IMG/VR virus record: IMGVR_UViG_3300030118_001869
Coordinates: 1 to 64,000 of that record
From: a virus
Length of the DNA: 64,000 nt
Strand: one strand, 5' to 3'
The translations under genes and the position numbers were made by a program. Below, one piece after another: positions 11,765-36,600 of the stretch; positions within the stretch are counted from its first letter, which is position 1; every line of letters starts with the position of its first letter. The notes beneath the pieces are model-generated. The model worked only from the letters and a program-made list of their open reading frames with translations. It was not told where the DNA came from and ran no database searches.

Positions 11765-14700
11765 ATGGCAAAGAAACAACCTGCAAGAAGACAGCCTGCA
11801 AGGAGCAGTAGAGTACCACAGGCAGGCACTCAGTCATTTAGTAAGGGGATGATTAAAGACATTCATGAGTCTATTCAGCCCACTACTAACTGGACGCATG
11901 CACGTAATGTTGCAAATCATTCTTCTGATGGTGATCTTGGTGTTATAGGTAATGAACCAGCAAATTTAAGATGTGCTGAGGTACCATACACAATAATAGG
12001 ATGTATTCATAAATATGGTGATGAGTGGATAATATACTCTACAGATAATAGTAATTCTGAAATAGGATTATTTGATGACAGCAAATGTGAATATACAACT
12101 TTAGTAAGTGCTCCGTGTTTAAACTTTAAGACTTCACATTTAATAACTGGTGCTTCAAAAGAAAACTATGACTGCTCTTGGCAAGTATACTGGGATGATG
12201 GTTTAAATCCTTCACGTACATTAAATTTAGATGATATACCAAGATTACAAGTAGAGACTACTGCGCCAGGTGATGATTGTGTTACATTTATTGATGATCC
12301 TTCAACATGTTTTAATCTAGATTGTGAAAGATTAAGATTAGCTCCTCTAGTTACTGTTCCGTGTTTAAAACTAAGTCAAGCTGAAGATGGTGGACAATTA
12401 AGAAATGGTACATATCAAGCATATGCTGCTTATGTAGTTAATGAACAAAGAGTCACTGACTACATGGGTATTTCTAATTTACAATCACTTTGGGATCATA
12501 AAGGTACAGGTGGTTCTTTAAATATAGAACTATCTAATCTAGACAGAGAAGAGTTTGAATATTTTGAATTAGTAATACTTAGTAACAATCAAAACAATCA
12601 GGTTGCAAAAAAAATAGGAATATATAGCACAGACACAAGTAGTATATCTATTGACTTTATAGATCAAGCATTACCAGTGGTACCATTAGAAATAATACCA
12701 CTTAGGAATCCTGCTTATGAAAAGTCAGATGCAATGTTTGTTGTTAATGATTATCTAATAAGAAAAGGACCTACAACGCAGTTTGATTTTAACTATCAAC
12801 CAAAAGCTAATAAAATTATATCTAAGTGGGTTGTAAAAGAATATCCTGCTAACTATTATCATAAAGGAGGTAATGCTGTAGGTTTTATGAGAGACGAACA
12901 ATATGCATTTTTTATAAGATGGATATATAACACAGGAGAAAAGTCAGCATCATACCATATACCAGGAAGAGCACCTTTAGTTAATGGAACTAATCAATTT
13001 GGTAATAGTATAGATGAGCTTGGTATATCTGCTGGAATAGATACTATAGCTAATGATGAATATAATTTTCAAACATATAATACAGCATTTGTCACGGAAC
13101 CAGCAGTAAATCAAGTTAGTGGTGATGGTGTAATACTATCAAAAGGTAGAATGGGTTATTGGCAGTCTACTGAACGATATGATACAAGAAGACCAGAAAT
13201 ATGGGCAGAATTATGTGGTAAACATATTAGACATCACAAAATGCCTACAGAAGAAATACATGAAACACTTAGGTTAACAAATAGTTCAGGTACAGCTATA
13301 AGAGTATTAGGTGTTGAATTTGATAATATTGAAAGACCTACTTTTAATGATGGAAGTTATATTCCAAATATAGTTGGTTATGAAATATTAAGAGGATCAA
13401 GAGAAGGTGCAAAATCTATTTTAGGTAAAGGTATATTTAAAAATATGCGTAAGTATGATGTACCTGATGCAGAAGACCTAACAAATTCTGGTGTTCAAGG
13501 TCTTTATCCTAACTATCCGTACAATGATTTAAGACCTGATGTATTTTTTGCAGAAAAAAGAACTGAAGATTGTAACACTTTTGTTGGTGGTTTAAGTGAG
13601 TATCCTCCATTATCAGGCTTTACCAAAGACGTATTTACTTTTCATTCTCCAGAGCTTATGTTTAGAAAACCTTTTTTAAACGCATATGAGACTAGATTAT
13701 ATGGTGAGCTAAGTGGTAAAGCATCAGGAAGTTTTTATGCCTCTGAAGAACATCCTCAGTTTAAATTATTAAGAAGTTCTGCTGCATTGATTGCAGGAAT
13801 AATTGGTCTTGGATATGCTATAGGTAGAGTAAGAGGTAATAAAACATTTGGTAGAAGAAGTCCTAGTACTGGTATTGCTGGTATTGGTGGACCTCATTGG
13901 GGATCTGTAGAAATATTAGGTGTAGGTGGAGAAGCTTCTATACCAGGATCTGCAGTAGGGGAAGCAGCATTAGCAGCAGCAGCTGCAGCAGGTGGTAGTG
14001 CTTTAACAGACTTGTTGGGTGCAGTACTTGGTGCTCTGATAGATGATGCAGCTTCTTTAGGTTCTTTATTTACAGGTAGTAGTACAATTATGGAAACTTA
14101 TTTAGCAGGTAAAGATTTATTAGGTGGTGTTAGTGCAGTTATACCTGGTATTGATTCAGGACACATGATAGAGTCATATACAAAAGATCATGCAACCGGT
14201 AATTTACCAAATGTAGTGGGTACATTTTTAGGAAACTCTATAGGTAGAACAAATATTGTAACTGGTGGTGATGAAATTATAGAACTATTTTACAATTTAG
14301 CAAAAGAACAAGATCATGCTTTAAAATACAACAGTTATGGTCAACTTAATAAATTTCAAAATTTAAGTAATGGTAGTGTATTTAGATCTAAAACTCTTGA
14401 CTCAAATTACATAGATTCTACATTTCAATTATTTGACAGCGGCAAGTACAAAGTAAATAATTTATTTAGACCATCAACTGTTATTATATCACAGGAAAAA
14501 GAATTTGCTGTACCACAAAATATAGATAATTCTAGATTTGCTTTAGGTGGTGATGTAGATCAAGATAGACCAGGTAGACTAAAAAGACCAGAAAAGGTAA
14601 GATCATCAAACATATCTAGTCTTTATGGTGCTTTAAAATTTAACTTTGAAAATCAATATGGTCAGCTAGATCAAATTAAGCAAGTTATAATGAGAGGTTG

Positions 14701-17700
14701 CACAGAAAATATTGATTTAGAATTACCTGCAGAAACAAGATATACATCACAACCAATATTTGATGGAGATACATACATAGGAAGATATACTGAAAAATGT
14801 ATAATGCCTATTTTTACAGACTTTTTATACGGTCAACCAAATGGTTTTACTTATGACTACAGAAATAAAGTAAATATACCATTTCCTAGATTTTGGATGG
14901 ATACGCAAAAGTTTGATCTTACAGACATGGCAGCTGAAATTATGTCTTTTGGTCTTGCAGATACTAGTGGTGGTTCTGTAGTACCAGCAGATTTATATTA
15001 TTTAGATAGAGGTTCATCATGTACAGGAACTGCACTAGGTGATTTATTTAGTGGTAGTAATACAAATCCAAAACAACCAAGACTATCATTAAAATATGCT
15101 TATATGTATACACACGTGAATGGTATACATGACTTTTTTGTTGAGTCTGAAATAAATTTAGCTCATAGAGATTGGGATGATAGAGCTGAAGAAAAAATAT
15201 ATTCTGCTTATTATAATAATAATGTAAAAGATTTATTACACGCTGCTATTATTAAAGAAGATAATTTTTATAAATATGATTACTCACTTAGTGCAAGTAG
15301 ATTTATAACAAACTTAGCATCTAATGGTAATATACAACCAAGAGACTATGATCCATTAGTAGCTGAAAAATGTCATGATTACTATCCAAAAAGATTAATC
15401 TACTCAAACAGAGCAATGAATGAGCAGAAGAAAGATTTTTGGAGAGTATTCTTACCTAATAACTATAAGGATTTTAAAAATAGAGTAACATCAATAAACT
15501 CTCTTAATAAGACAGGGGCTATGATGTTCTTCCCATATCAATCACCTGCAATATTCCAAGGTGTAGATACACTTAAATCTGATATGGGTACTGAGGTATA
15601 TCTTGGTGATGGAGGTTTGTTTGCTAGAGAACCACAGAATATAATGAACTCTGAAAAGTCAATAGAGTATGGATCTTGTGAGAGCTTAAGAAGTGTTGTT
15701 AACACTCCGTCAGGATTGTTTTGGATATCACAAGCACAGGGTAAGATATTTCAGTATGCTGGTAGAGGAGCACAGAATATTGCTAACCAAGGTATGAAGT
15801 GGTGGTTTAATAAATATCTACCATCACAACTTATTGCACAGTTACCAGAATTAGAAGAATACACATTAGGAGATAATCCTGTAGCTGGTGTTGGTTGTCA
15901 AACAGTTTATGATGCTAACGATGACATAGTATATTTCTGCAAAAAAGATTTTAGAATCAAAGATGAACATGTAGGTAAAATAATTTATGATACAACAGAC
16001 ACTAAATTTTATTACACTGATGGTCCTAGAATAGAAGTACAACTTGATGATAGTCTATACTTTGAAGATTGCTCATGGACTATATCATATGATCCTAAAG
16101 TAAAAGCATGGATATCATTCCATGACTGGCATCCAGAACTATCAGTGTCTAGCATTAATCACTTCTTAACTACAAAAAAGAACAAAAAGGTTACAGAAGG
16201 TTTGTGTCCTCCAGGTTTTACTTTTAATACTTCAACACAATTATGTGAGTGTGGAGGAACAGAAACAAATCCTGCACCTATTACTGTAGAAGAAGTTGCA
16301 GCTAATATTTCTGGTGGACCTGAGAATTGTTTAGTTGATATTGTTATTGGGATGGATATTTCAACTAGTACTAATACAGGTAATAGAAAACAAGCACAAG
16401 AAGATTTTGTACAAGCATTTATAAGTAATAGCACCATAACTAATGGTATATCTAATGGAAGTATACAGATTGGTTTTACTAGGTGGCATGGTGTTCATGT
16501 GGATAGTTTAAATCCAGGAGGATTTAGTATGAGTAATACGGCAGCAGATATAGCAGGTTCAGCAGCATACTATGGTCAGAATGCTGTAAATGGTACTAAC
16601 ATAACTAATGGAGTAAATGGTGCAGCTGGTGTTTTAGCACAGAAGAGTACATCAGAACTAGGAGACAGAAGTGCTGATCCTAATTTTAGAAACGTATTAA
16701 TAATTATTACAGATGGAACTGCATCTGTTGATAATCCACAAACAAGTGGCCCAGGCGGCACACAAGTTGGATGTCAATATCAGAATCAAGCAAACTATGA
16801 TGTTATAGCAGTGTTTTGTGATCCAACAAATCCAAACCCTCCAGGTGGTGGTCAAGCTATTTTAAATGCTATTACATGTAATGTTGCAGCAAATCAATTT
16901 ACAATAGCAGCTAATCAAACAACTGGACCTAATGCTCCAAGTGCTGTTGCTAATGCTGTAACTGGTGTAGCTTGTGGTACAGACTATCAATGTGAGTGTC
17001 CACCAGGATTTACTTTAGTTTATCCAGATGCAAATGGTAACCATACACAGGCTAGTGGTACTTGCACACCAAGTATACCACCTGATATAGCTCCTATATG
17101 TAGAAGAGTTATTTGTGAGTGTCCTCCACCTGTTGGTTTATTTGGTACTGTAACTGAGACAGGGGTTTGTGATGATTTCTTTTTGTTAGGTGATCCTACG
17201 TATGTTAATCCAACACCTAAAATGTGTACAGTAAATACACTAACTACAACTGAAGCAGCTGAATTCAGCACAAGTTTCTGGAGACACAACTATAGATGTG
17301 ATGAATATGCAAACTTCTATGGAGAAGATTATCCATGGGAAGTAGAGGTAGTTAATCACACAGGTCAACTTGTTACTACATTACGTAGTATAGAGTATCA
17401 TTTAGAAAGCTTTATCTATAAAGGGGATATGCATAACGGATGTAATGATGATAAGTGGCATGATCTTGACTATAACTTTGATGAGGTTATAATACATAAC
17501 ACAGAACAAGTATCTGGTAAATTAGTATTATCACTTACACCAAAAGAACAACCTATACAAGCTTTAGCATATCCTATAATAAATGCTACAGACATAAATA
17601 TATTATATTCTAAAGAAGAACAAAAGTATAGATTTAATCAGTTCTGGGATATAACAAATGATAGAGGTGAGTTTAGTATAGCACAACAAACTATATTTAA

Positions 17701-17884
17701 TACTCAACCTAATGGATATATTAGAGATTTAAATATTAATAATTTAAACTATGATAAATCAGAAACACAACGCAAAAAGTTTAGACATTACTACAATAAG
17801 ATGCTTTTAAGAAAGACTAAATCAGAAGGTAGAAAGATGATACTTAGACTTAACAACTTTAAATTTCAAACATCACAAAGATAA
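11765..17884 (+). CDS. Tail stabilisation / muzzle protein (P22 gp10-like role) with inserted vWA domain, 2039 aa
   Basis: N-terminal FSKGMIKD...NEPAN, VYWDDGLNPSR, GFMRDEQYAFFIRW and C-terminal WTISYDP...WISFHDW.P motifs resemble crAss-like muzzle proteins. vWA insert at about 16320-16980 (DISTS, IIITDG). Confidence 0.75.
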   Translation: MAKKQPARRQPARSSRVPQAGTQSFSKGMIKDIHESIQPTTNWTHARNVANHSSDGDLGVIGNEPANLRCAEVPYTIIGCIHKYGDEWIIYSTDNSNSEIGLFDDSKCEYTTLVSAPCLNFKTSHLITGASKENYDCSWQVYWDDGLNPSRTLNLDDIPRLQVETTAPGDDCVTFIDDPSTCFNLDCERLRLAPLVTVPCLKLSQAEDGGQLRNGTYQAYAAYVVNEQRVTDYMGISNLQSLWDHKGTGGSLNIELSNLDREEFEYFELVILSNNQNNQVAKKIGIYSTDTSSISIDFIDQALPVVPLEIIPLRNPAYEKSDAMFVVNDYLIRKGPTTQFDFNYQPKANKIISKWVVKEYPANYYHKGGNAVGFMRDEQYAFFIRWIYNTGEKSASYHIPGRAPLVNGTNQFGNSIDELGISAGIDTIANDEYNFQTYNTAFVTEPAVNQVSGDGVILSKGRMGYWQSTERYDTRRPEIWAELCGKHIRHHKMPTEEIHETLRLTNSSGTAIRVLGVEFDNIERPTFNDGSYIPNIVGYEILRGSREGAKSILGKGIFKNMRKYDVPDAEDLTNSGVQGLYPNYPYNDLRPDVFFAEKRTEDCNTFVGGLSEYPPLSGFTKDVFTFHSPELMFRKPFLNAYETRLYGELSGKASGSFYASEEHPQFKLLRSSAALIAGIIGLGYAIGRVRGNKTFGRRSPSTGIAGIGGPHWGSVEILGVGGEASIPGSAVGEAALAAAAAAGGSALTDLLGAVLGALIDDAASLGSLFTGSSTIMETYLAGKDLLGGVSAVIPGIDSGHMIESYTKDHATGNLPNVVGTFLGNSIGRTNIVTGGDEIIELFYNLAKEQDHALKYNSYGQLNKFQNLSNGSVFRSKTLDSNYIDSTFQLFDSGKYKVNNLFRPSTVIISQEKEFAVPQNIDNSRFALGGDVDQDRPGRLKRPEKVRSSNISSLYGALKFNFENQYGQLDQIKQVIMRGCTENIDLELPAETRYTSQPIFDGDTYIGRYTEKCIMPIFTDFLYGQPNGFTYDYRNKVNIPFPRFWMDTQKFDLTDMAAEIMSFGLADTSGGSVVPADLYYLDRGSSCTGTALGDLFSGSNTNPKQPRLSLKYAYMYTHVNGIHDFFVESEINLAHRDWDDRAEEKIYSAYYNNNVKDLLHAAIIKEDNFYKYDYSLSASRFITNLASNGNIQPRDYDPLVAEKCHDYYPKRLIYSNRAMNEQKKDFWRVFLPNNYKDFKNRVTSINSLNKTGAMMFFPYQSPAIFQGVDTLKSDMGTEVYLGDGGLFAREPQNIMNSEKSIEYGSCESLRSVVNTPSGLFWISQAQGKIFQYAGRGAQNIANQGMKWWFNKYLPSQLIAQLPELEEYTLGDNPVAGVGCQTVYDANDDIVYFCKKDFRIKDEHVGKIIYDTTDTKFYYTDGPRIEVQLDDSLYFEDCSWTISYDPKVKAWISFHDWHPELSVSSINHFLTTKKNKKVTEGLCPPGFTFNTSTQLCECGGTETNPAPITVEEVAANISGGPENCLVDIVIGMDISTSTNTGNRKQAQEDFVQAFISNSTITNGISNGSIQIGFTRWHGVHVDSLNPGGFSMSNTAADIAGSAAYYGQNAVNGTNITNGVNGAAGVLAQKSTSELGDRSADPNFRNVLIIITDGTASVDNPQTSGPGGTQVGCQYQNQANYDVIAVFCDPTNPNPPGGGQAILNAITCNVAANQFTIAANQTTGPNAPSAVANAVTGVACGTDYQCECPPGFTLVYPDANGNHTQASGTCTPSIPPDIAPICRRVICECPPPVGLFGTVTETGVCDDFFLLGDPTYVNPTPKMCTVNTLTTTEAAEFSTSFWRHNYRCDEYANFYGEDYPWEVEVVNHTGQLVTTLRSIEYHLESFIYKGDMHNGCNDDKWHDLDYNFDEVIIHNTEQVSGKLVLSLTPKEQPIQALAYPIINATDINILYSKEEQKYRFNQFWDITNDRGEFSIAQQTIFNTQPNGYIRDLNINNLNYDKSETQRKKFRHYYNKMLLRKTKSEGRKMILRLNNFKFQTSQR

Positions 17885-19494
17885 TGCATAGTAAAAAGTT
17901 TACAAAGACTGAAAGAAGAGGATTACCAGGTGGACCTAATGAAGTGTTTACCTACGTAACAGGTGTGTTCTCTACTGAAGGATATAAAAATGATAGTCCA
18001 GACAAAGACAATCCTTTTAATATTATTCCGTCAGGTAATATTACTATGAAAGATGTAGACTTTCCTGTTATGGGTATAGATAACTTAGGTAATAGCAAAA
18101 TGATGATGCCAGGTGGAGAGTATGAGTTTCCTGGTGATATGGTATTTGAAATGCCTATGGGTAAGTCAGGTATAGAAATAAAGCCTGAGAATAGAGGTAA
18201 GTTTACAAGATGGGCTAAGAAGCGTGGTATGACTGTTAAACAAGCATATGCAAAGGTTTTAGCAAATAAAGATAAGTACCCTCCATCAATAGTAAAGATG
18301 GCTAATTTTGCACGTAATGCAGCAGGATGGAAAAAGCAAGACGGTGGTCCTATTGAGCCTCTAACATTTTTTAAAACTCTAGTAAATCCCGTAGCACCTC
18401 TTATAACTGGTCTTATACAAAAAGGTAAAGAAAATATATCAGAAAATATTTTGCCAGTAGGATACATGGATGATAGATCATTATCTGGACAACCTGATGG
18501 GCAATTTATACAATCAGGAAGTAAGCTAGTTAATAAATTTTCTAATCAATCAACTATACCGAAAGAACGTGGTTTAGTAAATGATGCATCAATTCCACAG
18601 ATAAGCAAAGTTTTACGTGCTCTTACTAATATGCCAAAGTCTGAAGGTCAAATAAGAAGAGAAGAAAGATTAGCTGAGAATCCAGCTAACAATCTTGCAC
18701 TTGCAGAAAGAGAAGATCTTTTAAATATTCTTTTAGGTTTAGATCAAAAGCATAATAGTATACCTATACAAGATCAATATAAACCTTCTAAATCTAAAGA
18801 TCCTGACTCAGTATATTACAGATCTCCAGCTACAGAAAAATTTATACAAAATCAGTTAGAGGAAAATCCTGAAGAGTTTATAAGAGAAATTTATAGACAT
18901 AAAGGTGGTATTGACTACTGGGCAGAAGATTATCAACAGATAAATTCACTAGGTCAATTTACTTTAAATGTAGGAGAAGATGAAAAAGGTAAATATATAT
19001 CTTATTATGATGTATGGGATTTACAACCATTTAAAAATAAAACTGCAACTGCTATTTCAGATGCAGCTCAATCTTTGGTAGGAATAAAACCACCAGAAAT
19101 ATATGGTAGAGTATATTTACCTGAATTAAATGTGCGCTCTAGTGCAACTTCTACAAAAAAAAGAAATATACAAGATGAAATAAAACGTGGTGGTCAAGTA
19201 AGTTGGAACTTTAAAGGTAAAACTTATTCTGGTACACTTATACCTAGTATGGAAGATGCTAACAATAGATATGCTAGAACTCACAATGGTAAAATTAAAA
19301 CATTACCTAAAAAGAAAATGGGTGGTAAACTTAGAATATATAAGGACTTTGTAAATGGTGTATATGATAATAGTTCAAACATAGATTTTGTGCAAAGCGT
19401 GTTTGATAAAGTAAATAGAATCTATCATAGTCAAGCAAAAGAAGCAAATATGAGTACACCAAACTATGTAATGTCATTTTTAGTAGATGGTTAA
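17884..19494 (+). CDS. Modular internal virion (cargo) protein
   Basis: Contains modules I recognise from crAss-like phages (SGNITMKDVDFPVMGID...; IEIKPENRGKFT...ANFARNA) separated by KxxGG-type motifs. TAATG-coupled to the muzzle gene. Confidence 0.6.
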   Translation: MHSKKFTKTERRGLPGGPNEVFTYVTGVFSTEGYKNDSPDKDNPFNIIPSGNITMKDVDFPVMGIDNLGNSKMMMPGGEYEFPGDMVFEMPMGKSGIEIKPENRGKFTRWAKKRGMTVKQAYAKVLANKDKYPPSIVKMANFARNAAGWKKQDGGPIEPLTFFKTLVNPVAPLITGLIQKGKENISENILPVGYMDDRSLSGQPDGQFIQSGSKLVNKFSNQSTIPKERGLVNDASIPQISKVLRALTNMPKSEGQIRREERLAENPANNLALAEREDLLNILLGLDQKHNSIPIQDQYKPSKSKDPDSVYYRSPATEKFIQNQLEENPEEFIREIYRHKGGIDYWAEDYQQINSLGQFTLNVGEDEKGKYISYYDVWDLQPFKNKTATAISDAAQSLVGIKPPEIYGRVYLPELNVRSSATSTKKRNIQDEIKRGGQVSWNFKGKTYSGTLIPSMEDANNRYARTHNGKIKTLPKKKMGGKLRIYKDFVNGVYDNSSNIDFVQSVFDKVNRIYHSQAKEANMSTPNYVMSFLVDG

Positions 19495-19517
19495 ACATTA
19501 GATATTGTCCTTATTAA

Positions 19518-19530
19518 TTTGTATATTATA
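19518..19530 (+). promoter_or_regulatory. Putative phage promoter motif TTTGTATATTATA
   Basis: Exact 13-mer in the short intergenic gap before the cargo/RNAP gene run. Confidence 0.55.
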
Positions 19531-19538
19531 GATATAGT

Positions 19539-21854
19539 ATGAGTATTAGAAAGTTACATAAAAAAAGTTTAAACAAAGCAGTGGAAGGCAGAGACTTCAG
19601 GTATCGTCCTAGATACATGCCATTGAACTATGGTATGGAGGCTGGGAACTTTAATATTGGAGATGCATTCAATGTTTTAAAAAGTGGCTTCCAAGACTTT
19701 TTTGGTGGTAAAGATACTGACGGAGATGGATTCAAAGATGGTATCTTCAGAGATATGAAAGATAAAAGAGAGTTCCGTAAGAATGTAGTAGTACCTAGAA
19801 TGTATGATTACAAGGTTATGTATGATGATGATACTACACCAGGACTGTATGAATATGATGCAAAAGATTTGTTTGAGGCATCAAAGTTTGGTAAAAGATT
19901 ACTTGGTAATAATACAATAGATCCTACAGGGCAACTAAACTATAGTAATGATCCTAATGATCCTACTAATACTTTCTATACAGATCCTACTATAACTTTT
20001 AAAAATAGAGATAGTATTAATGCACCTGATGGTCTCACTACTCTGAGACCTAGTATGCTTAAAACAATAAGAGATGCATCATCAACTATAATGGGAATGC
20101 CTCCTGTACAGGAAGAAGTTAAAGATAACAAGATCAATGATGCATTAGAAGGAGTAGGTAATGCAATAAAAGATGCAGGCAGTAAGTTAACAGATTTTAC
20201 TAATGATTTATTAGAAAAAGGAGAACTAACACTTGATGATATTAAAAATAATACTCAAAATTTTATTGACAAAACTAAAGGTTTTATTCAATCTGATATT
20301 GCGCCTTTATTGAATCCTAGACTTAATAAATTTCAAAAGAAAGGTGAAGTAAATGAAACTAATACTAGATCATATGATCAACGTAGACTATTGGAGATAC
20401 AAGAAGAGATAAACAAAGGAAATCTTTCAGATGAACAAAAAAGTAATCTTTTTGCAGAACTTACTAATTATGGTATTGCAGAAGAAAACTTTTTAAAAAA
20501 CTTTAGATTAGGTATTTCACAACTAGATGAAAGACTTGAAGAAGGTACTTTACCAAATAGAGAATCTAGCTTATACACAGATGCAGAAGGCAACCCTGAC
20601 ATAATTCCAGGAGCTGGATTTTTAAGTAAACCAATGTTCAACTATTTAGAAAAAGAAGGATTTGCATGTAATACATACGCTTGTTCTATTCTAAGAGATG
20701 CTAATGTAACATACCCTATAAATATGAAACCTATGGTTATTAATAATAGAACATACTACGGAGGAGACAAAGTAGCAGTTATTCCTGGTAATTTGCAACA
20801 AGATGGTATTTATAACTATGTAACAGGTGACCAAGGTTTTAAATTTGTTGACGTTGCTACAGGTGAGGAAATGCCTGGAGACTATGCAAGAGTAGGTTAT
20901 CCAAAAACAAATCATGCAGTAATATATACAGGTGATGAAAACAACCCAGGAGAATCTATTTATAATCCAGGTAGTGTAACAACTGGTTTAAAAACTAGCA
21001 CTGCATTTAGTCCAGGCGAAGATGATATGATTAAAGTAGTAAGATACACAGGAAATCAAGATTTTATAAATAGTTTAATAGATCAAGTTAGTGATGGACA
21101 AACAAAAGTAGCAGGTACAAATGATGATGCTGGTATACCAAAAGGACAATATGGGTTTAATTTTCAAGGTACACCTCTACCAGTTATGCAAACATTCCCT
21201 ATAATGGAGGAACAAACTACTATGGTACCAAACCCAGATTTTAACTTTATGAGTTTGCTAAGTCCACAAACAGATTTAGCAAGCAGTATGCAGAATATGC
21301 AAGACTTAGAGTTACAGCAAAGATTCCCTGATTTAGGACCTACACCTGCACAGCAACAACAGTCCAATCAACCATTTATAGAAAATACAGAAATGGTACA
21401 AGTAGGAGAAGAAGAGAGACAAGTAGGTATAGAAAACCCTGCAGCACCTGAAGTTCAAGGAGCTACAGTAAAAAGAGATTTTGGAAAAGGTTTAGAAGGA
21501 TTGGGGAACAGAGCATTAACAGCACTTAATAGACTAGAGAGTAGTGTACCATTTCAAATATATCTAAAAGGTTCTGACTTTGCAGTAGGTGCAGCATCTG
21601 TAATAAATGATTATTTTCAAGATAGAAAAGTTGCTGAAGCAAAAGAAGAAATGAGAAGACTTAACATGGCAGATAATATGTTTGGTACATCAGAAAGAAC
21701 AGATAGAGGTTTATATGATACTAATACTGGACTACTTATGCCTGACATGTCTGTAACAACATCATATGGAGAGCATGGTGGTGAAGTAGAAGTAGACGAT
21801 ACAACATTAAAACAACTTATGGCAGCAGGTGCTGACATAGAAATAATAGAATAA
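19539..21854 (+). CDS. Cargo/ejection protein with putative NlpC/P60-CHAP-like peptidase domain
   Basis: ACNTYACSIL ... PGDYARVGYPKTNHAVIYTG gives the Cys...GD...H-x-x-I-Y-x-G pattern. Located in the cargo gene run. Confidence 0.55.
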   Translation: MSIRKLHKKSLNKAVEGRDFRYRPRYMPLNYGMEAGNFNIGDAFNVLKSGFQDFFGGKDTDGDGFKDGIFRDMKDKREFRKNVVVPRMYDYKVMYDDDTTPGLYEYDAKDLFEASKFGKRLLGNNTIDPTGQLNYSNDPNDPTNTFYTDPTITFKNRDSINAPDGLTTLRPSMLKTIRDASSTIMGMPPVQEEVKDNKINDALEGVGNAIKDAGSKLTDFTNDLLEKGELTLDDIKNNTQNFIDKTKGFIQSDIAPLLNPRLNKFQKKGEVNETNTRSYDQRRLLEIQEEINKGNLSDEQKSNLFAELTNYGIAEENFLKNFRLGISQLDERLEEGTLPNRESSLYTDAEGNPDIIPGAGFLSKPMFNYLEKEGFACNTYACSILRDANVTYPINMKPMVINNRTYYGGDKVAVIPGNLQQDGIYNYVTGDQGFKFVDVATGEEMPGDYARVGYPKTNHAVIYTGDENNPGESIYNPGSVTTGLKTSTAFSPGEDDMIKVVRYTGNQDFINSLIDQVSDGQTKVAGTNDDAGIPKGQYGFNFQGTPLPVMQTFPIMEEQTTMVPNPDFNFMSLLSPQTDLASSMQNMQDLELQQRFPDLGPTPAQQQQSNQPFIENTEMVQVGEEERQVGIENPAAPEVQGATVKRDFGKGLEGLGNRALTALNRLESSVPFQIYLKGSDFAVGAASVINDYFQDRKVAEAKEEMRRLNMADNMFGTSERTDRGLYDTNTGLLMPDMSVTTSYGEHGGEVEVDDTTLKQLMAAGADIEIIE

Positions 21855-21856
21855 TT

Positions 21857-24529
21857 ATGGCACATCACGGTAAAAAGAAAAAGAAAAAGGTTAAAATCAA
21901 AATCAAAAAAGTTCCACAAGGCTTTGAGATTAGGAATGGTAAGATTATGGCAAAAGCTTCCTATGGTGGTGGCTTTGTAACTGGTGATCAAATGGATTAC
22001 GGTCTAGTTACAACTTATGCTAATAACGGTAATGGTGAAAAGAAAGATGATGTAAGATATTCACTCTCTTCTGTGCCGAGAGAGTTTGCTAATATTGAAG
22101 CAGAAGGTGGTGAGACAGTATTATCTGATTTAAATAATAATGGAACGTTTGGATTATACAATATAACAGGACCAAGACATAGTCAAGGTGGTGTACCTAT
22201 GTTTTTACCAGATCAATCTTTTATTTTTTCTGACACACCAAAGATGAGAATGAAACCAGATGAGATAGCTGGCTTTGGAATAGAAACTAAAAAACGTATG
22301 ACACCTGCAGAATTATCTAAAAAGTTTCCATTGAATGAATTTATAGCAGCTGCTGGTAGTCCTGACTCAGATAATATAACTGAGAGAAGTGCAGAGTTAA
22401 TGTTGGATAAGAATATGATGAGTTTATCTAAACTTGCATTTGGTCAAGAAATGAAAAAAGGATTTGAAGATGGTGTGCCTACTGCAGCGTTTCCTTTTAT
22501 ACAATCACAGGGACAAGATCCTGTAAACTTTGCTGCTATGATGGATGCACAGATAGCACAGAATAGAGCAAAAGCATCTTACGGTATGCAGATAGTAGAA
22601 GATGAACAACCTGTTTTACCAAAAGGACAAGATGGTGTAGATGTTGAGACATCAAGAATATCTCCTGATGGAAAAAGTGTTCAACTTTTTTTGAATGATA
22701 GTTTAGCTAATGAAATACCAAATCCATATAGCAAAGATGTGTTCAGACAAATGCATGAGATGCAAATGCAAAAATATAAGGAAAATTTGCAGAGGCAAAG
22801 ATTGATGTATGATTTGGAAATGCAGAAAAGATTAGAAGAGTTACGAAAAGAAAGAGAATCAGGTAGGGGTATGACTTTAGAAATACCTAAAGCACAAACT
22901 GGTGGTGATAGAACAGACTTTTCTGATTTACCTAAAGCTATAGAGAATACTATACAGTCTATTCTTGAAGCTGCACCAGACCCACGAGCACCAGAAGTGC
23001 AACAACAAATAAAAGCAATTATTGATAAGGTTAATCAAGTATCACAAAACACAGATATATCTAATGAAGAGCAAGAAGAAACAGTTAATGAGATAGTTAA
23101 AATTGTAGCTGACAATATTGAAGATCTTGGTGAAGGAAGAAGTCCTCTTATTACTGCAGCTTTAGCAAAAATTGATAATATGCTGCAAGATAAAGGTATA
23201 GAGATAAGACCTACTATGGATGTTGGTGATCAAGGAATAGAAGACACTCAACAGAAACAAGAGTCAGGTTTATATGGTGATGTGACTGAAGAAAACTTAA
23301 AACAGTGGTTTGACAATAATAAAGAAACCATGAAAGTCATGGGTTATGATAACTATGACGCTCTTGTAGAAGATAAAGGAAAAGATTGGTTTGATAATGA
23401 TGCCTTTGTACTAGAGTATCAAAAAAATGTAAATAGTGCACTAGAAGCAAAGTATGAAGAAGACCCTGAGCTTAGAGCACAACTTGAAGAACTAGATATA
23501 AGCAAAGAAGAGTTTATTAAAACATATGGGTTTGACCCAAACGCTACTGGTAAAAATAAAAAAGCAGCTCTTGATGGTAAGTTTGGTGAGTATACACTAA
23601 ATAGAAGAGACTTTACAGGATTACCTGAGAAAGAAGAACCAGAAGAAGAAGATCCACAAGAAGATCCACTGCCACCAGGTAAAGTACCACCAATTCCTGA
23701 TTTCTACAGACAGGATATGGTCAAGATGGACGCACTATCCAAAAGAGATAGAGATTTGCTTACACCAAGTAGAATGGCAGTAGAACAGATAGAATTAGAT
23801 CCAGTATTGTTAGATCCAACTAGAGCTATAGCTGCTATAAATGAACAAGCAGCTATTGGTGCTGACGCAGCAGGTATGTTTGGTCCGCAAACACTTAGTG
23901 CTAATATAGCTAGAAATACAGGTACAGCATTTAAAAATATTGCTAATACTTTAGGTAAGTATGATGCAGCTAACGTAGGTATACTTAACAAAGCAGATGC
24001 TCTACAAGCCCAAATTGATATGAGAACGGATGCTGCAGAGCGTGCTAATTATGCAGATGTTTTTGACGGAACTAATTTAGCTATACAAAACTACATGGAT
24101 GAAAGAAATCTTGACAGAGAACAGTTTGCTGATTTATATGCTAATGCTTTAACTAATAGAGCTAATACATATAACTTAAATACATTAACACCTTACTTTG
24201 ATATTGATCCTAGATCAGGAGGTATGGTTATGAACGTAGATACTGCAGGATTATTTAAGCCTAGTCAGCCAGCAGATCCATATGCACAGTTAGAAAAATT
24301 AATGGACTTATCTAAACTTGCAAATGCAGCAGGATTAGAAACAAAACCAATAGACATTAATCAACTTTTTGGTCAAAGCTCAGGTGTAACACCAGCAGAT
24401 CAATTACGTGGATCTATAGTAAGTATGAATCAAGGTAATCAAGGAACACCTGTTAGTAAATTTGGTACAGGAATTAAAGCACCAGTAGTACCATTTTATA
24501 TAGGAACAACAGACGGAAGAAGAAAGTAA
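21857..24529 (+). CDS. Internal virion (cargo) protein, 890 aa
   Basis: ANIEAEGGET...GPRHSQGGVP...FIFSD motif typical of crAss-like cargo proteins. Helical Ala/Asn/Gln-rich C-terminal half. Confidence 0.65.
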   Translation: MAHHGKKKKKKVKIKIKKVPQGFEIRNGKIMAKASYGGGFVTGDQMDYGLVTTYANNGNGEKKDDVRYSLSSVPREFANIEAEGGETVLSDLNNNGTFGLYNITGPRHSQGGVPMFLPDQSFIFSDTPKMRMKPDEIAGFGIETKKRMTPAELSKKFPLNEFIAAAGSPDSDNITERSAELMLDKNMMSLSKLAFGQEMKKGFEDGVPTAAFPFIQSQGQDPVNFAAMMDAQIAQNRAKASYGMQIVEDEQPVLPKGQDGVDVETSRISPDGKSVQLFLNDSLANEIPNPYSKDVFRQMHEMQMQKYKENLQRQRLMYDLEMQKRLEELRKERESGRGMTLEIPKAQTGGDRTDFSDLPKAIENTIQSILEAAPDPRAPEVQQQIKAIIDKVNQVSQNTDISNEEQEETVNEIVKIVADNIEDLGEGRSPLITAALAKIDNMLQDKGIEIRPTMDVGDQGIEDTQQKQESGLYGDVTEENLKQWFDNNKETMKVMGYDNYDALVEDKGKDWFDNDAFVLEYQKNVNSALEAKYEEDPELRAQLEELDISKEEFIKTYGFDPNATGKNKKAALDGKFGEYTLNRRDFTGLPEKEEPEEEDPQEDPLPPGKVPPIPDFYRQDMVKMDALSKRDRDLLTPSRMAVEQIELDPVLLDPTRAIAAINEQAAIGADAAGMFGPQTLSANIARNTGTAFKNIANTLGKYDAANVGILNKADALQAQIDMRTDAAERANYADVFDGTNLAIQNYMDERNLDREQFADLYANALTNRANTYNLNTLTPYFDIDPRSGGMVMNVDTAGLFKPSQPADPYAQLEKLMDLSKLANAAGLETKPIDINQLFGQSSGVTPADQLRGSIVSMNQGNQGTPVSKFGTGIKAPVVPFYIGTTDGRRK

Positions 24530-30600: not shown

Positions 30601-33600
30601 ACTTATTTAATAATAATAAGAAAATATTTAGGAAGTTAATTAGACAAAAAATAGCAAAGACTGAAAGAACAGAAACATTAAAGGCTTTAGATAAACTTGG
30701 TATATTAGTGCCACCAGGAGAGGCAATGGAGTTTATAATGACTGGTGATGTAACTAAACTAAAAACTTTTGAAAATAGAAAAGGTAGAGTTACAGAAGAA
30801 GGTAGTCCAGAATTATTTCAAGCAGTACAAGAAATTTTATTAAAGTATGAAAAGCTTGTTACACCTGAAGAAGTAAAAAAAGAAGAAGAAGCACAAGATA
30901 CTCAAGACTTTGAGAATGCTAAAGCTACACAGGAGCAAGACTTTAATGATGCAGCAGAATCAGGTAGCCCTTTACCTGCAATAAATACTGATTTAATTAC
31001 TGATAGAGAGTCTAAAGTATTAAATAAACTATATGAAAAATATAAAAAGTCTGTTGCTGCTGATGGTAATATACTTACAGAAGATCAATGGTTAGAACTT
31101 AACAGTACCAAGAGACAGTATAATGGTATGCAAAAACTGTTTAAGTTATATGATGATGCTGCTAGTAAGATGCAGCCATCTGGGGTATCAACAGCAGAGG
31201 GGCAGGAAATAGGTGGTCCAGCACTAACATTTGATGAGTGGTATAAAGATAATAGAAACAGTAAGAATGTTAGATTAATCTTATTAACTAATGGATTAGC
31301 TGCTTCAGACTTTGTAGAAGGAGAAAAAGCTGCACAACCACCAAAGTTACCTCCAAATCAAAAGTTTATAAAGAAGGGTAAAGGGATAAACATACTAGAG
31401 ATTACACTGGTAGATCCACAAGGAGCTACTAGAAAAATTTATAGAATAGTAGATAATGATATACAACCAGTATCTCCTTCTTTATATCAAAGAGCTAATC
31501 TAGATAATGTTGATGCACATGCTAATATACAGTCAGCTGATAAGGTGTTTAATATGCTAAACAAGTTTGTTGCTGAAGACACTAAATATAACTTTGACGG
31601 TATAGAACTTGGATACGGAGATACAATAATAGATGACAAAGGCCAAAAGTATTTTGTTATTGGTACGCCAAATAATGTTGTTGATGGTTCTAAACTAAGA
31701 GTAAGAAAGTTATCAGATAGTACAGAAATACTACTTGATGAGGTAGGGTTTGCAGAAACATACAAGAAGGATGACAGATCATTTAAGGAGAAGATTGATA
31801 GACCAGAAAAGACTAAGATTACTAGAATTAAAACAGGTGAGCTAAATAGCATTTATCCTGATAGAACAAAGCCTAGTGCTATATATGATTTGATTGATGA
31901 CGCTGACTTTGATATCAACAATATAAGCTTTAGTGTATTTATTAATCCTGAGAGAGCAGAGGCACCATTTACAATCCCTGGATCTACTTTACAAGCTAAC
32001 CCATTTATTAAAAAACTAGGTGACAAATATACTGTAGCAGTTAAATACAAAGGTGAGACAGTAGGATTTGTAGCAAATGGACAGTATAAATTTGAGTTTG
32101 AAGGCAAACCTTTGAACTTAAACTCTAGTCAAGATAGCCTGCAGTTCTTATTTGATATGAATAAAGCTGACATTGTTGAACAAGTTTTAGCAGCACAACA
32201 TTTAGAAGCTACTCTAGACAAGCTGTATAAAGGAAAGACAGGAACAATAGATTTAAGTGTAGAAGATTTAAAGAAAGAAGGTATTAACTTTAATCTTAGA
32301 GGTGAAATATTTAACTATGAAGGAACACCTAAAGCATTAGATACTTATGAAAATAATACATTTGAAGGTGGTCAACTAATAATTATTAGGAGAAAAACTG
32401 CAGATGAGTTTGGTAATTTAGTAATTACTACAGATTATGTTTCTGGATTAGAAGAAGGAGCACAAGAGCAATTTGAAAAAGCAATCAAAGAAATAGATCA
32501 AGATAAAAAGCTTAAAGAACAGCTATTAAGAAAAGGTTATACAGCTGTTTCAAGAAGACTTAATGGAAAAATACTTTTAATACCTCTTGATGTAGACTCT
32601 GACGCACAAGAATTCCAAGACTTATTAGGAGAAATATCTGAAAAATCTAAAACTTTAAGTACAACTAATATAGATGATAAGGGTAAAGTAAAAGATGCTG
32701 CTGCGTCAAAAGAAATAAATGCGGATATAAAAAGCAAAGTGTTTATTTCTGGCAAACCTGGTGATAAACTAACACTATCAATCAATGCAAAAGGTGATGT
32801 TATACTGCAAGGTAAACAAGGTGGTAAAAGTGTCAATGCAAGCCTAACAGCAGAAGAGTATTCTATTAAAGGATTCAAAGGCTTGATAGATAAGTTTAAT
32901 GAAAAGGGCAATATATCAACTAATAACTTTAGAGTTAATATACCTAAAGAAGCAACATTACAACAAATAAAAGACTCTACTACCTCTACTCTGCAAAGAA
33001 TCAGACCTGCAACAAATAGAGTAATATATTTTAGTGTAGACTCTGAAAGAAAAGAATCATCTAAGATTATTGAGAATCCACAACCTAAAGATCAAAATAC
33101 TAAAACAAATGACAAAGTAGACTTAGGTAAGGTATCAGAGATGTCTAAGAACTCTGATACAGTTGCACCAACTGACCAAATAGCTGAAGAGGTTAATGCT
33201 GCTATAGCTGCTAGAGATGCACTTAAGAAAAAAATATACAAAGAAGCAAAAGCTCAAGGATTAAATAGAGGTAAAGCACTAAAAGAAAGTAAAGAGTATA
33301 AAGCTGCTGTAGAAAAAGTAAATGAAGCAAAGAAAAAATTAAATGGTGAAGCATATAAAATATTACCTGAGAACTTTAATGGAGTTGAAACAGAGAAAGT
33401 AGATGCTTTTATAACTTGGGCTAATGAAAACTTACCAGAGTTTATTACTGTTGGTAATGTAAATGAAATAGGTAACAGGCTAAAGAACAATGGTATAACT
33501 GCTGGTGCATTTATTATGGCACTCAATGATATAGCAGGTAAAGTAAATATTAATGGTACCATATATGTAGGCACACATGGTTTCAGATACCATGAAGCAT

Positions 33601-36600
33601 TCCATTCTGTATTTAGAATGCTATTGACACCTGAAGAACAAAAGCAATACTTAGCTATTGCAAACAAAGAGTTGAGAGCTAAGCTAAGAAGAGAGGGTAA
33701 AAACTTTGAGGTTGAGTTACAAAACTTTAGAAATCTATCTGCACTATATAAAGGATTTAGTAGAGCAAGACTAGAGCAAGAGTTTTTAGAAGAATATATG
33801 GCAGATGAATTTGAGAAGTTCAAACAAGGACCTAAAAATTCTACTGCTGGCGGATTTATTAAATCTTTATTTACAAGAATACTTAACTGGATTAAGACTG
33901 TACTAGGAGGATTTAGTAAGAATCAACTAAAAACTCTGTTTGAAAACATAGATGCAGGTAAGTATAAGTCTAGGGGTATTGCTAATAATATGTTTACTAA
34001 TGCTTTGACACAAGGTATTACAGTTGATGCATATAAACTTCTACCTACTAAAGAGATAGCAGGAGACAGAAGAATAACATATGAATACCTAGATCCTAAT
34101 ACTGCAACGTTTTTAGTAAATAGTTTTGTATCAAGATTAATACAATTGAATGATAAGCCTGGGAGTAGATCATTAACTGAGATAGAAGATCAAGTATTTG
34201 ATGAGTTTGCTGACTTATATGACTCAACTAATTCTAGGTATGATAATATAACAGATGAGCAATATGACAGACTATTAGAGATAGAAGAAGCAATCAACTA
34301 CATGTCTGATACATCTTCTGCAGACTCACGTCCTCAGCTGATGTTAGCTGCTAGAGAAATGATAGATACATTCCAGCTTAAGTTAGATAATAATGCTGAT
34401 ATAAATGAAGTCTTTGAAAATAATCTAGGCCTTAGAACTACAGATCAGTTTGATACTGATGCTAGTATGAAAGGTGGTGTAACAGCTTTACCATTAAAGT
34501 TAAGACTATATATTGCTACAACAACCTTAGAAGATACAGACTACTTTGGTAATCAATTCTTAATTGATCCCGTTACTGATGAAAAAGGTAATATAACTAC
34601 AGAGGGAGAAAAACTAATTGTTCCAGTTGATATAGATGCTGTATATAATGGTATACTAAAAGCAGTGAAAAACAAAACAGATGCTTTTGACATATTATCT
34701 AGCTTATACGTATTTGGTAGAACAAATAAACACACTAAAGCATTTGTTGACAGATTGTTCAATGATATGGGTATAAATGGTGAAGAAATGATTGAGTCAG
34801 GTCAGTTACCAGAACTTGTAGGAAGACCTGGATTTGTAATGCAAGTAATTAAGTCATTCCAGAATGCAAGAGTAAATTATTTATTTATTCAAACTGACAC
34901 AGCAACAGGTAAAAACTTTTATTATGATGCTGCAACAAGAGATGCTGCTAAAACTCAGCTAGGTGCTTGGCAACAAATGTATGATCAAAAACTTAGTATA
35001 ATAAAGTCAGATCCTAGATTTAAAGGTAGAGTTCAAGCTACACTAAAAAGAGCAATAGGTAGACTTCAAGCAACTAGAGGAAGAATAGATAATACTAAGT
35101 TTGAGCTAGAGGCTATGAGATTATCTCAAGATATATTTGACGCTATAGGTATAAGATTTTCTCCAGCTTATTTGCAATTGAGTATGTTAAAAGCAAGTCC
35201 AGAAAACATAGCTAAAAAAACAAAAGCACAGCAGATATTATTAGATAACAATATTAATGTAAGATCTTTGAGTGTAGAGGATTTGTCTGCAATAAAGGAT
35301 ATTGTATTAGCAGGAGGTAATATATACGCAGAAAGTAGTGGTGCTGCATCAAGACTAACTGCACTAGCAATAGGTAATCAAAAACTAGATGAACAAGTAG
35401 GAGCAACAACATTTACAAATGCAGATGGTAATTTAGTTTATGCACATCAAATGCCTACATTCCATACAAGAATAATAGCAAAATTAAATGATGAAGACTT
35501 TATTGAAGAGTTGATAGAAAGATTCCCAAACAATCCTTTGATACAAAGTGAAGCATTTAGAACACTGTCAGCTGATAATAAAATAGAGCTTATAAGACTT
35601 GCAGGATTTAGAAAAGGTAGAATATCATTATCAGAACAAAATGAGATTATAAGTGATGGTACTAAAAGTGTTGCATATGCTAAAACCTACGGTAAGCAAT
35701 CACCTCAAGAATTTATTATAAACTTAGTAAAAGCATATACATTTAATTTCAATACAAATACTTTACAGAATAAACTAAGTAATGGACAGGCGCTGGTACC
35801 AACATTGATAAGAGTAATGGAAGCAAGTAATACAGGTGATATGATTAATCTACCTGTTATAAAAGCAGCGGAGTTACAAAACAAAACTTTGAGCATACCT
35901 AAAGAGGCACTAGATATATTTGTAACACAGATACAAAATGAATATGCAAGAATAGTTAGAGAAGTGCAGACTCCAACTCAGGATCTAATAGTAGGCTATA
36001 ATGCTGATAACAATGGTGTTTCTACACTAGATACAAAAGATGGTAGAGCATATAAATTGTTTAATACTAGGTATTTACTACCTGCAGATTCTGTAAAAAT
36101 ATTAGAAGAAGAAGCATATAAAGGTACACCATTTGCTGACGCAGCAAAGTTAGCAGTAGAGGGTGGATTTTATAATGCAGTTAAAAAGAGCTTACTAGAT
36201 GAATTTAATAAATTCTTTGACTTGGTAGGTAGTGATATAGCTAATGACGCAGGTTTTATAGCAGGAGTACAAAATGCTGATGGTAGTGTACAAGGAGAAG
36301 ATATAGCTATAGCTAATCAACAACTTAACTTAGTTCCAGGACAGTTTAAATTAAATCTAGCACAGATATATTTTAATGATAAAATTAATACCACTGCAAT
36401 AAATGAACTTATATTAGGTGATGAAGCAGTAACATTAAAAGATTCAATTGATAAAATCAAAAGAGCAAAAGGTCAAAATGGTGCTATACGTTCAATAGAC
36501 TTTGGCTTTACAGCACCAGAGTTAGGTATTAGACACAAATTAGAAAACATAGAAATATATCCTTTTACTGATCCTACATTTGAAAAGCAATCTGGAGAAG

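Follow-up and report, generated by a model that had tools for sequence, protein, structure and literature searches.

Results

The three genes that follow the muzzle protein gene of a marine crassvirus encode proteins punctuated by a recurrent peptide, hereafter the seam, which is built on the core unit K-x-Q-x-G-G and frequently lies where protein modules meet and are exchanged. The phage is uncultured and known from metagenomic sequence; it is represented by IMG/VR virus record IMGVR_UViG_3300030118_001869, and the window analyzed here is the first 64 kb (64,000 nucleotides) of that 114-kb viral record, the completeness of which is ~99% according to CheckV. We found that the seam pattern is real and widespread and that its conservation concerns the peptide and not the DNA; the pattern apparently has not been described so far, and a literature search for the string 'LPKAQ' together with 'phage' gave no relevant match. 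We read the seam, with about even confidence, as an uncut hinge or docking site between the modules of C1-like ejection proteins, and we favor this reading over a protease site, which we consider possible with clearly less confidence.

Pfam matches for the muzzle, ring 1, ring 2 and Crass capsid families identify a crassvirus locus, and the phage is a marine member of Crassvirales. By the same Pfam matches, tail ring proteins 2 and 1 are encoded immediately upstream of the muzzle gene, and the gene for the major capsid protein lies in another part of the genome. Five long plus-strand open reading frames (ORFs) of 536, 771, 890, 1029 and 4283 amino acids (aa) lie 3' of the muzzle gene, and the first three, P0001, P0002 and P0003, occupy slots -2, -1 and 0 directly downstream of it, inside the crassvirus virion module; their products are most likely carried inside the particle.

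11765..17884, plus strand: muzzle protein gene, 2039 aa (PF25731 crAss_MUZ, E 2.3e-30), which anchors the cargo block
17884..19494, plus strand: cargo gene 1, P0001, 536 aa, slot -2; variable modules framed by an N-terminal leader and a C-terminal tail, both conserved
19539..21854, plus strand: cargo gene 2, P0002, 771 aa, slot -1; conserved Cys377...His459 region and conserved C-terminal tail
21857..24529, plus strand: cargo gene 3, P0003, 890 aa, slot 0; N-domain (aa ~12-240) and C-domain (aa ~450-883) conserved, middle variable

A search with the single P0003 sequence found no relatives in IMG/VR or among GenBank phages, and a DNA search with the region returned a single match of 78 nucleotides to the gut phage cr128_1. 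More than 1000 P0003 homologues occur in metagenomes, and a profile built from such homologues retrieved 80 syntenic IMG/VR loci (including L002-L081), across which the order muzzle, cargo A, cargo B, P0003-like protein, ~1030-aa protein, vRNAP is kept. Neither P0002 nor P0003 matched a Pfam or PHROG family, and the modules of P0001-P0003 matched no known enzyme family.

A conserved peptide specific to the cargo genes

The full seam has the consensus aromatic-[KRQ]-x-G-G-x-L-P-K-A-Q-x-G-[NT]-E and amounts to a tandem pair of K-x-Q-x-G-G units, either half of which may stand alone. When 101 sites left after conditioning on K[AGM]Q.G and redundancy filtering were profiled, the flanks proved to be conserved as well, with Y at -6, G at -5 (54%) and -4 (35%), L at -2 (61%), P at -1 (60%), [NT] at +5 and E or G at +6. 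Each cargo protein holds between zero and four copies, most of them internal. Among the unique proteins encoded at the 80 loci, the counts observed and expected after composition shuffling (observed/expected) were as follows.

P[KM][AGM]Q.G: slot -2, 63/0; slot -1, 32/0; slot 0, 13/1; muzzle, 3/0; ~1030-aa protein, 1/0; first ~2200 aa of vRNAP, 0/0
Q.GG: slot -2, 95/16; slot -1, 144/20; slot 0, 36/26; muzzle, 15/14; ~1030-aa protein, 21/16; first ~2200 aa of vRNAP, 12/29

The shorter strings Q.GG and GGE show the same gene specificity as P[KM][AGM]Q.G, and the muzzle orthologues were not enriched for seam motifs.

In a scan of IMG/VR, DNA encoding GGxLPKAQxG was found at least 148 times, in at least 120 loci. 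Among the matches listed, 147 of 148 are in frame, in open frames of 157-2689 aa that often hold two or three copies each; 83 of the 122 carrier frames listed are related by BLAST to the three cargo slots and 39 are unrelated, one sampled member of the latter having an Amidase_2 domain and the other sampled ones no family. At 129 distinct GGxLPKAQxG sites, the choice among synonymous codons is free at all positions of the seam (proline, CCT 69 and CCA 54; alanine, GCT 70 and GCA 52; glycine, GGT and GGA in about equal numbers); it is therefore the peptide, not the DNA, on which selection acts.

The seam had been noticed in a sequence-only reading of the window, as a motif K-[AG]-[QSE]-x-G exemplified by 11 strings in the three genes. 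All 11 strings were located in the translations of the three ORFs; five fit the motif as worded and six do not, and each aligns with a seam-type variant in homologues, most of these variants being canonical. Two N-terminal copies, the degenerate NKAVEG of P0002 and GLPGGPNE of P0001, had been overlooked. Whether the motif is enriched depends on how it is drawn and where it is sought: when all 103 ORFs of the genome were shuffled for comparison, K[AGM][QS].G, the loose pattern, was not enriched (6 matches against 2.75 +/- 1.85), the tight core PK[AGM]Q.G was (3 matches against 0.05), and across the 80 loci slots -2, -1 and 0 were enriched. The case from one genome alone would therefore be weak and post hoc. 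A genome-wide scan found the motif only in the cargo ORFs and in two small basic ORFs.

Modules exchanged at seams

Breakpoints of homology were taken from BLAST comparisons of 232 cargo proteins, all against all. A breakpoint cluster lies within 15 aa of 110 (74%) of the 149 internal seams, against 44.8 +/- 5.4 (30%) for random placement. Strict seams account for only ~6% of all breakpoint clusters, and other module boundaries therefore exist too. From phage to phage, the same modules change gene and position: module B (IKPENRGKFT...ANFARNAAGWKK) is found in slot -2 here and in slot -1 in many relatives, and a ~45-aa module, GGSVSWNWKGK...KTLPKAQxG, lies at aa 99, 301, 328, 639 or 791 depending on the phage. 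Each slot has its own conserved terminal peptides, which adjoin a seam, while the interior varies. Fused forms, with the slot -2 tail or the slot -1 leader in an internal position, were looked for and none was found, so gene fusion gives no evidence either way.

The clearest single event is in P0003, where an 80-aa cassette is present or absent among near-identical relatives. P0020 and P0021, which are ~98% identical to P0003 in the flanks, and P0022-P0027 lack exactly aa 263-342, and relatives without the cassette read VLPKAQTGGDR over the joint. The cassette was gained or lost recently, each of its ends lying within a seam, and the seams on its two sides (cca aaa gga caa and cct aaa gca caa) share ~10 of 12 bases.

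22643..22882, plus strand: 80-aa cassette, aa 263-342 of P0003

Of the three roles that had been proposed for the motif, the junction at which payload domains are swapped is borne out by these results, with breakpoints at seams, modules moving between genes and a cassette held between two seams; the other two, a maturation-protease site and a capsid-loading tag, are candidate roles with points for and against them.

Seams of the individual cargo proteins

P0001 carries a Gly-Gly element at the end of its leader and four further copies.

17914..17943, plus strand: conserved leader-end Gly-Gly element RRGLPGGPNE, aa 11-20
18148..18171, plus strand: degenerate seam EMPMGKSG, aa 89-96 (EVPMAQxG or EVPKAQYG in homologues)
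18328..18348, plus strand: seam WKKQDGG, aa 149-155, at the end of module B (WKKGQEG, WKKEEGGE or WDKGKKAQTG in homologues)
19177..19194, plus strand: degenerate seam EIKRGG, aa 432-437 (PKAQKGGGSVSW in homologues; aligned with PKAQKGGG)
19300..19326, plus strand: degenerate seam TLPKKKMGG, aa 473-481 (TLPKAQYG or TLPKGQMG in homologues)

Among 67 slot -2 proteins, 53 have the leader-end element, as G[LV][PKV]GGPN, within their first 45 aa; proteins of this slot start M..KKSIGLPGGPNE and end ..YDKLNRVYY.AK..GMS.PNYIMT. The sequence-only reading had divided P0001 into modules at its motif, and this division holds, since breakpoints cluster at aa ~99 and ~472. Homologues diverge completely right after EMPMGKSG, at a cluster of 137 ends of BLAST high-scoring segment pairs (HSPs) at aa ~99; they do so again after WKKQDGG, after TLPKKKMGG (54 HSP ends at aa ~472) and after EIKRGG, which opens a ~45-aa module (GGxVSWNWKGK...). 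Module B itself (aa 99-156) matches phrog_20603 and is found also in gp45-family C1 proteins of gut crassviruses.

P0002 carries four copies.

19572..19589, plus strand: degenerate N-terminal seam NKAVEG, aa 12-17 (KKSLNKAQxG in orthologues)
20325..20348, plus strand: seam NKFQKKGE, aa 263-270 (KFQxGGE in orthologues)
21135..21155, plus strand: seam IPKGQYG, aa 533-539, which holds the DNA copy at 21138
21762..21785, plus strand: seam SYGEHGGE, aa 742-749, aligned with SYGKxGGE and directly before the conserved tail EVEVDDTTLKQLMAAGADIEIIE

Other slot -1 proteins start M..NLNKKSVKQQGG. One P0002 orthologue reads KLQDGGDLPKAQKG followed by an inserted module where P0002 has NKFQKKGE, and PK[GA]QYG is kept in most of 17 aligned orthologues. 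At the other end, the tail K.Q.GGE.I.VD...LAKLIAAGADIEIL is common to otherwise unrelated slot -1 proteins, and its last part, ..E.I.VD...LAKLIAAGADIE(I/M)L (21786-21854, aa 750-771), is almost invariant over them; it may be an attachment or targeting peptide. The motif copies at aa 263-270 and 533-539 had been said to bracket a putative NlpC/P60-like peptidase. They do flank the conserved Cys377...His459 region, in which one Cys and one His are invariant among aligned orthologues; because no Pfam or PHROG family matched, the peptidase label derives solely from these two residues. The region has 18 matches, all in close relatives, and the AlphaFold2 model of P0002 was uninformative (mean predicted local distance difference test score [pLDDT] 38.6). 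Near the N-terminus, aa 56-72 (19704-19754; GGKDTDGDGFKDGIFRD) resemble a thrombospondin-type-3 Ca-binding loop (DxDGDGxxD), the D-G-F-K-D-G core of which is invariant in 17 orthologues; similar loops, DSDGDGVINRFD and DWDGDGIPNNVD, occur in the variable middle of P0003 homologues.

Slot 0 proteins start MAKIKINKLP.GF...GG..TGDQ and end ..KKGKEIK..VPFYTGKMG. P0003 also carries four copies.

21950..21973, plus strand: seam AKASYGGG, aa 32-39, in the low-confidence segment aa 33-82 (pLDDT <50; KKMQQGG in homologues)
22565..22585, plus strand: seam half-unit RAKASYG, aa 237-243 (ARAQYG or MAKYGxELPKAQxG in homologues)
22616..22636, plus strand: seam LPKGQDG, aa 254-260, with the DNA copy at 22619 (ELPKAQxG in homologues)
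22883..22906, plus strand: seam IPKAQTGG, aa 343-350, in the low-confidence segment aa 335-352 (ELPKAQxG in homologues)

In the homologues KKMQxGG is conserved at aa ~23, ELPKAQxG directly after the N-terminal domain is kept down to ~35% overall identity, and 77 HSP ends cluster at aa ~235, by RAKASYG. The near-identity of the DNA copies at 21138 and 22619, which the sequence-only reading had pointed out, was confirmed (16 of 17 bases equal) and arises because the encoded residues are identical and codon use is biased toward AT. An AlphaFold2 model built with 79 homologues (mean pLDDT 64) has three segments with pLDDT <50, aa 33-82, 242-292 and 335-352. Such segments contain three of the four seam copies, and the fourth (aa 237-243) lies at the edge of 242-292, so that in this model the P0003 seams are predicted to lie in disordered linkers between better-defined modules. 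Foldseek found no match to the model at E <= 0.001, and a profile search of solved structures with the P0003 family returned only a low-complexity Q-rich match. In the C-domain, aa 608-780 (~23680-24196) are modeled as a very long helical hairpin (H677-777), for which VIA-align listed generic coiled-coil matches, including translocator-type proteins and the T7 tail complex, at Z ~7-8; these matches are not significant, and the predicted hairpin would fit a channel-forming ejection protein.

Relation to the C1 protein of gut crassviruses

The closest counterpart of the cargo proteins is gp45 (C1) of phiCrAss001, which belongs to PF25725 and whose gene, like that of P0001, is the next one downstream of the muzzle gene (Bayfield et al. 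2023, PMC10172136; PDB 7QOG and others). Cryo-electron microscopy resolved gp45 segments 214-245 on the tail barrel and 425-552 on the portal, and the structure authors read the protein as one chain that spans tail and capsid (PMC10172136). Their paper describes no junction motif, and the terms 'cleav', 'proteoly' and 'protease' do not occur in it (PMC10172136); the phiCrAss001 papers make no mention of cleavage, and their supplements contain no band assignment for gp45. Sodium dodecyl sulfate-polyacrylamide gel electrophoresis of phiCrAss001 virions gave bands of 85-100, 150, 270 and >300 kDa, values close to the full-length sizes of gp45, gp49, gp47 and gp50. Both gp45-type C1 proteins and the proteins studied here have a beads-on-a-string architecture and both contain module B (..RGKFT...ANFARNA..W..GG), whereas the content held by one gene in the case of gp45 is spread over three genes here. 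P0001 aa 99-156 are 45-60% identical to gut crassvirus segments, the best match being in the C1 protein of cr128_1, which in turn matches phiCrAss001 gp45 at E 1.5e-148. The gut proteins have boundaries of the form aromatic-x-x-GG (SAYGGP, YSKGGA, YELGGP, KYAGGGVLP) but no KAQxG, and in gp45 SAYGG (aa 206-210) and FGG (aa 426-428) stand at or just before the two ordered, virion-bound segments.

Similarity beyond module B is slight. PF25725 (crAss_CARG1) had no match in the whole genome at E <= 1; when the P0003 N-domain was compared by hhalign with a 32-sequence alignment of the gp45 domain (62 columns), aa 122-200 aligned weakly with the second half of the portal-bound domain (E 3.6e-4, 37% probability), and 7QOG was not listed by Foldseek or VIA-align for the whole P0003 model. 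P0001-P0003 are thus C1-like by position, shared module and architecture, and are not proven members of the family. Module B is also a stand-alone 72-aa gene in several gut crassviruses, for example cr50_1 (L204:1444-1662), where it lies between the portal and major capsid protein genes and is annotated 'transcriptional regulator'; there YKDGG precedes and FGG follows the module, which suggests that the GG is part of the module.

vRNAP, candidate proteases and neighboring genes

The sequence-only reading had named the HExxH zincin of the vRNAP gene as a candidate protease.

33591..33605, plus strand: HEAFH of the zincin-like domain in the 4283-aa vRNAP ORF

The motif lies at aa ~1970-2040 of this ORF (27684-40535), and at least 40 relatives keep YHEAFH...EEYMAD in their vRNAP. 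In 76 relatives the N-terminal ~2,200 aa of vRNAP, zincin included, are free of core seams; in the window vRNAP there is no K[AGM]Q.G or K.Q.GG match near the expected zincin/polymerase joint (aa ~2100) and no seam in aa 1931-2080, and the full 4283 aa contain one K[AGM]Q.G match, at aa 2929. The ORF, which had no Pfam match at E <= 0.01, is about twice as long as phi14:2 gp66, which we take to be 2180 aa. It looks like the fused 'polyprotein' form of vRNAP mentioned by Drobysheva et al.

The genome-wide scan found no seam in the portal, the major capsid protein or the other head-module ORFs. No prohead protease was recognized in the head-module ORFs by Pfam and PHROGs, although absence of a match does not prove absence, and family matching found no peptidase family among the window proteins and neither a C39 peptidase nor an ABC transporter in the window. 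A 431-aa ORF between portal and major capsid protein has no Pfam or PHROG family; it was considered as a possible prohead protease and shows no similarity to the 431-aa 'peptidase' at the same position in cr50_1.

The 1029-aa protein (24588-27677) would be the positional counterpart of C2 (gp46). Its N-terminus, MATY.PG....P...PFTPDYKFLS, is highly conserved in 77 of 77 loci, it contains no seam, and none of 65 sequences of the ~1030-aa protein has GG in the first 45 residues; like vRNAP, it matched no Pfam or PHROG family. A 1896-aa ORF follows the 4283-aa vRNAP-type ORF, and a single open frame of 2147 aa fills 106-113 kb of the genome. Between 52347 and 55250 lies a series of small, very basic ORFs of 66-103 aa, two of which carry the seam-like Gly-rich strings QKMANGGG and KRYKAAGGGY, the sole non-cargo matches of the loosest pattern; these small proteins may be stand-alone kin of the cargo modules or DNA-binding proteins.

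Discussion

We found that a short peptide is conserved at joints between exchangeable modules in three cargo proteins of a marine crassvirus and its relatives, and the question is what the virion does with it. In the reading that we favor, the three genes after the muzzle gene would encode C1-like ejection proteins built as beads on a string, in which a leader and a tail, both conserved, frame a variable set of small modules and almost every module joint carries one seam peptide with the core unit K-x-Q-x-G-G. The seam would act as a flexible hinge that lets each module fold, dock and unfold independently, so that the cargo chain could be stowed along the portal and the tail barrel and afterwards threaded through the tail, and a putative repeated site in the virion, such as the portal, ring or muzzle subunits, would recognize the seam's invariant residues, Lys, Gln and Gly, in trans. 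Because every module would have its own seam, in-frame cassettes could be exchanged without harm to their neighbors. By analogy, gp45 of phiCrAss001 may serve as a precedent for a chain that stays whole, with aromatic-x-x-GG boundaries by its ordered segments, a one-chain reading of its structure and bands near full length. Several points weigh against this reading. Hinge, docking and cleavage alike predict a conserved motif in a disordered linker, and a passive linker would not call for as many as ~11 conserved positions with K, Q and G invariant. Copies that lie 10-30 aa from the N-terminus or ~25 aa from the C-terminus resemble propeptide junctions. The precedent is itself imperfect, as the gut C1 proteins have GG boundaries but not KAQxG and P0003 is related to gp45 weakly at best, by the hhalign comparison and the empty PF25725 search given above.

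Alternatively, the seam could be a protease site, cut at maturation or after ejection by a phage enzyme (the vRNAP zincin, the P0002 Cys-His domain or an unrecognized prohead protease) or by a host protease, with leaders and tails removed and modules released as separate effectors. We regard this as possible, with a likelihood well short of even. The motif is short, strongly conserved and situated in predicted disordered linkers; copies follow the short conserved leaders M..NLNKKSVKQQGG, MAKIKINKLP...GG and ..GLPGGPNE, and one precedes a conserved 25-aa tail, an arrangement reminiscent of T4 capsid-targeting propeptides and double-glycine leaders. Modules exist as stand-alone genes in other crassviruses, and the zincin is conserved in the co-packaged vRNAP; zincin processing has been proposed in the literature for polyvalent proteins (PMC5512222) and for fused crAss vRNAP polyproteins. 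Yet the zincin-bearing part of vRNAP is itself free of core seams in 76 relatives and the window vRNAP has none by the zincin or at the polymerase joint; portal, major capsid protein and other head proteins carry no seam, no prohead protease was found by Pfam or PHROGs, and the Cys-His domain, with its 18 close matches and no family support, is far narrower in distribution than a clade-wide seam. The phiCrAss001 bands near full-length sizes and the modeling of gp45 as one chain also speak against cutting, as does the stand-alone module of cr50_1, which retains GG on both sides as if the GG belonged to the module. A compound version, in which the seam is a processing and packaging code whose leaders and tails target cargo into the procapsid or tail before a protease cuts at K-x-Q-x-G-G, strikes us as rather doubtful. 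If it were true, the cargo genes would in effect be polyproteins that release separate, exchangeable effectors, and it would explain why different C1 parts are found in the tail and the capsid of crassviruses.

The remaining explanations fare less well. It is unlikely that the seam with its adjacent leader or tail is a loading tag that lets scaffold or portal bring cargo into the procapsid, in which case the internal copies would be remnants carried along with exchanged modules. It would agree with slot-specific conserved terminal peptides that adjoin seams while the interior varies, and with confinement of the motif to three genes whose gut homologue gp45 sits on the portal and tail barrel; against it, most copies are internal, with zero to four per protein, and other packaged proteins, the C2-like protein and vRNAP, are without the motif, so the seam cannot be a general encapsidation code. 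We consider it very improbable that the seam is a Lys-Gln isopeptide cross-link site at which a transglutaminase-like activity, possibly that of a papain-like Cys-His domain, stitches cargo into a conduit: K and Q are the two invariant side chains, in flexible loops, and P0002 does offer an invariant Cys and an invariant His, but the idea is pure inference, the Cys-His region has no family match and is absent from most seam-bearing phages, and M replaces K at one class of site (PMAQxG). Equally improbable, and already disfavored by the data, is a recombination signal at the DNA level that promotes homologous module exchange and leaves the peptide incidental. The copies at 21138 and 22619 do agree at 16 of 17 bases and the cassette indel ends inside two copies, but synonymous codons are free at every seam position over 129 distinct sites, the copies that flank the cassette share only ~10 of 12 bases, and the peptide is kept down to ~35% protein identity. 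If a low-complexity string simply recurred by chance in proteins rich in Gly and Lys, that would account for the loose pattern not being significant in this genome (6 against 2.75); this explanation is already refuted by the tens-fold enrichment over composition-matched shuffles in 80 loci, by the conserved flanks and by the 147 of 148 listed IMG/VR matches that are in frame.

The nearest concepts to the seam are the site codes of maturation proteases and interdomain linkers, and several known systems share part of its character. In T4-type gp38 adhesins, Gly-rich motifs delimit hypervariable segments within one folded domain of a receptor-binding protein; these motifs and the seams are both conserved Gly-containing peptides that frame variable segments and mark exchange points, whereas the seams, for which disorder is predicted, connect separate modules of internal proteins. 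Bacteriocin double-glycine leaders are cut by C39 peptidases, and like the leaders here they are ~10-30 aa long, N-terminal and end in G-G; unlike the acidic/hydrophobic consensus of those leaders, the leaders here are basic, and most seam copies are internal. The prohead proteases of T4 (gp21) and phiKZ-like phages recognize a consensus site. In T4 and in phiKZ-like or SPN3US giant phages (PMC5694885, PMC10052503), protease motifs likewise form a short recurring consensus in internal or ejection proteins, after leaders and between segments, but there mass spectrometry has proven the cleavage, the dedicated protease is known and the site is present in capsid and scaffold proteins too, whereas here neither a protease nor a head protein with the motif was found. 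Polyvalent proteins (Iyer et al. 2017, PMC5512222) are likewise multi-module, virion-delivered and extensively shuffled, with a zincin-like peptidase as the proposed processor; unlike them, the modules here mostly match no recognized enzymatic family. No motif for junctions or for cleavage is defined in their description, in which 'linker' is never used and 'cleavage' appears three times (PMC5512222).

Regardless of whether the chain is cut, the seam bears on how the large cargo of crassviruses is stowed, ordered and ejected, and it offers a precise handle on the choice between intact threading through the tail and delivery as processed pieces. Crassvirales are among the most abundant gut phages and are common in the sea. 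For annotation, the seam is a simple rule by which dark-matter proteins of 500-2700 aa can be divided into modules, and, if seams are permissive for insertion, they would be a natural site for placing foreign cargo in phage particles. For the evolution of these phages, it means that the payload changes by exchange of cassettes at seams, as seen here between relatives that are ~98% identical.

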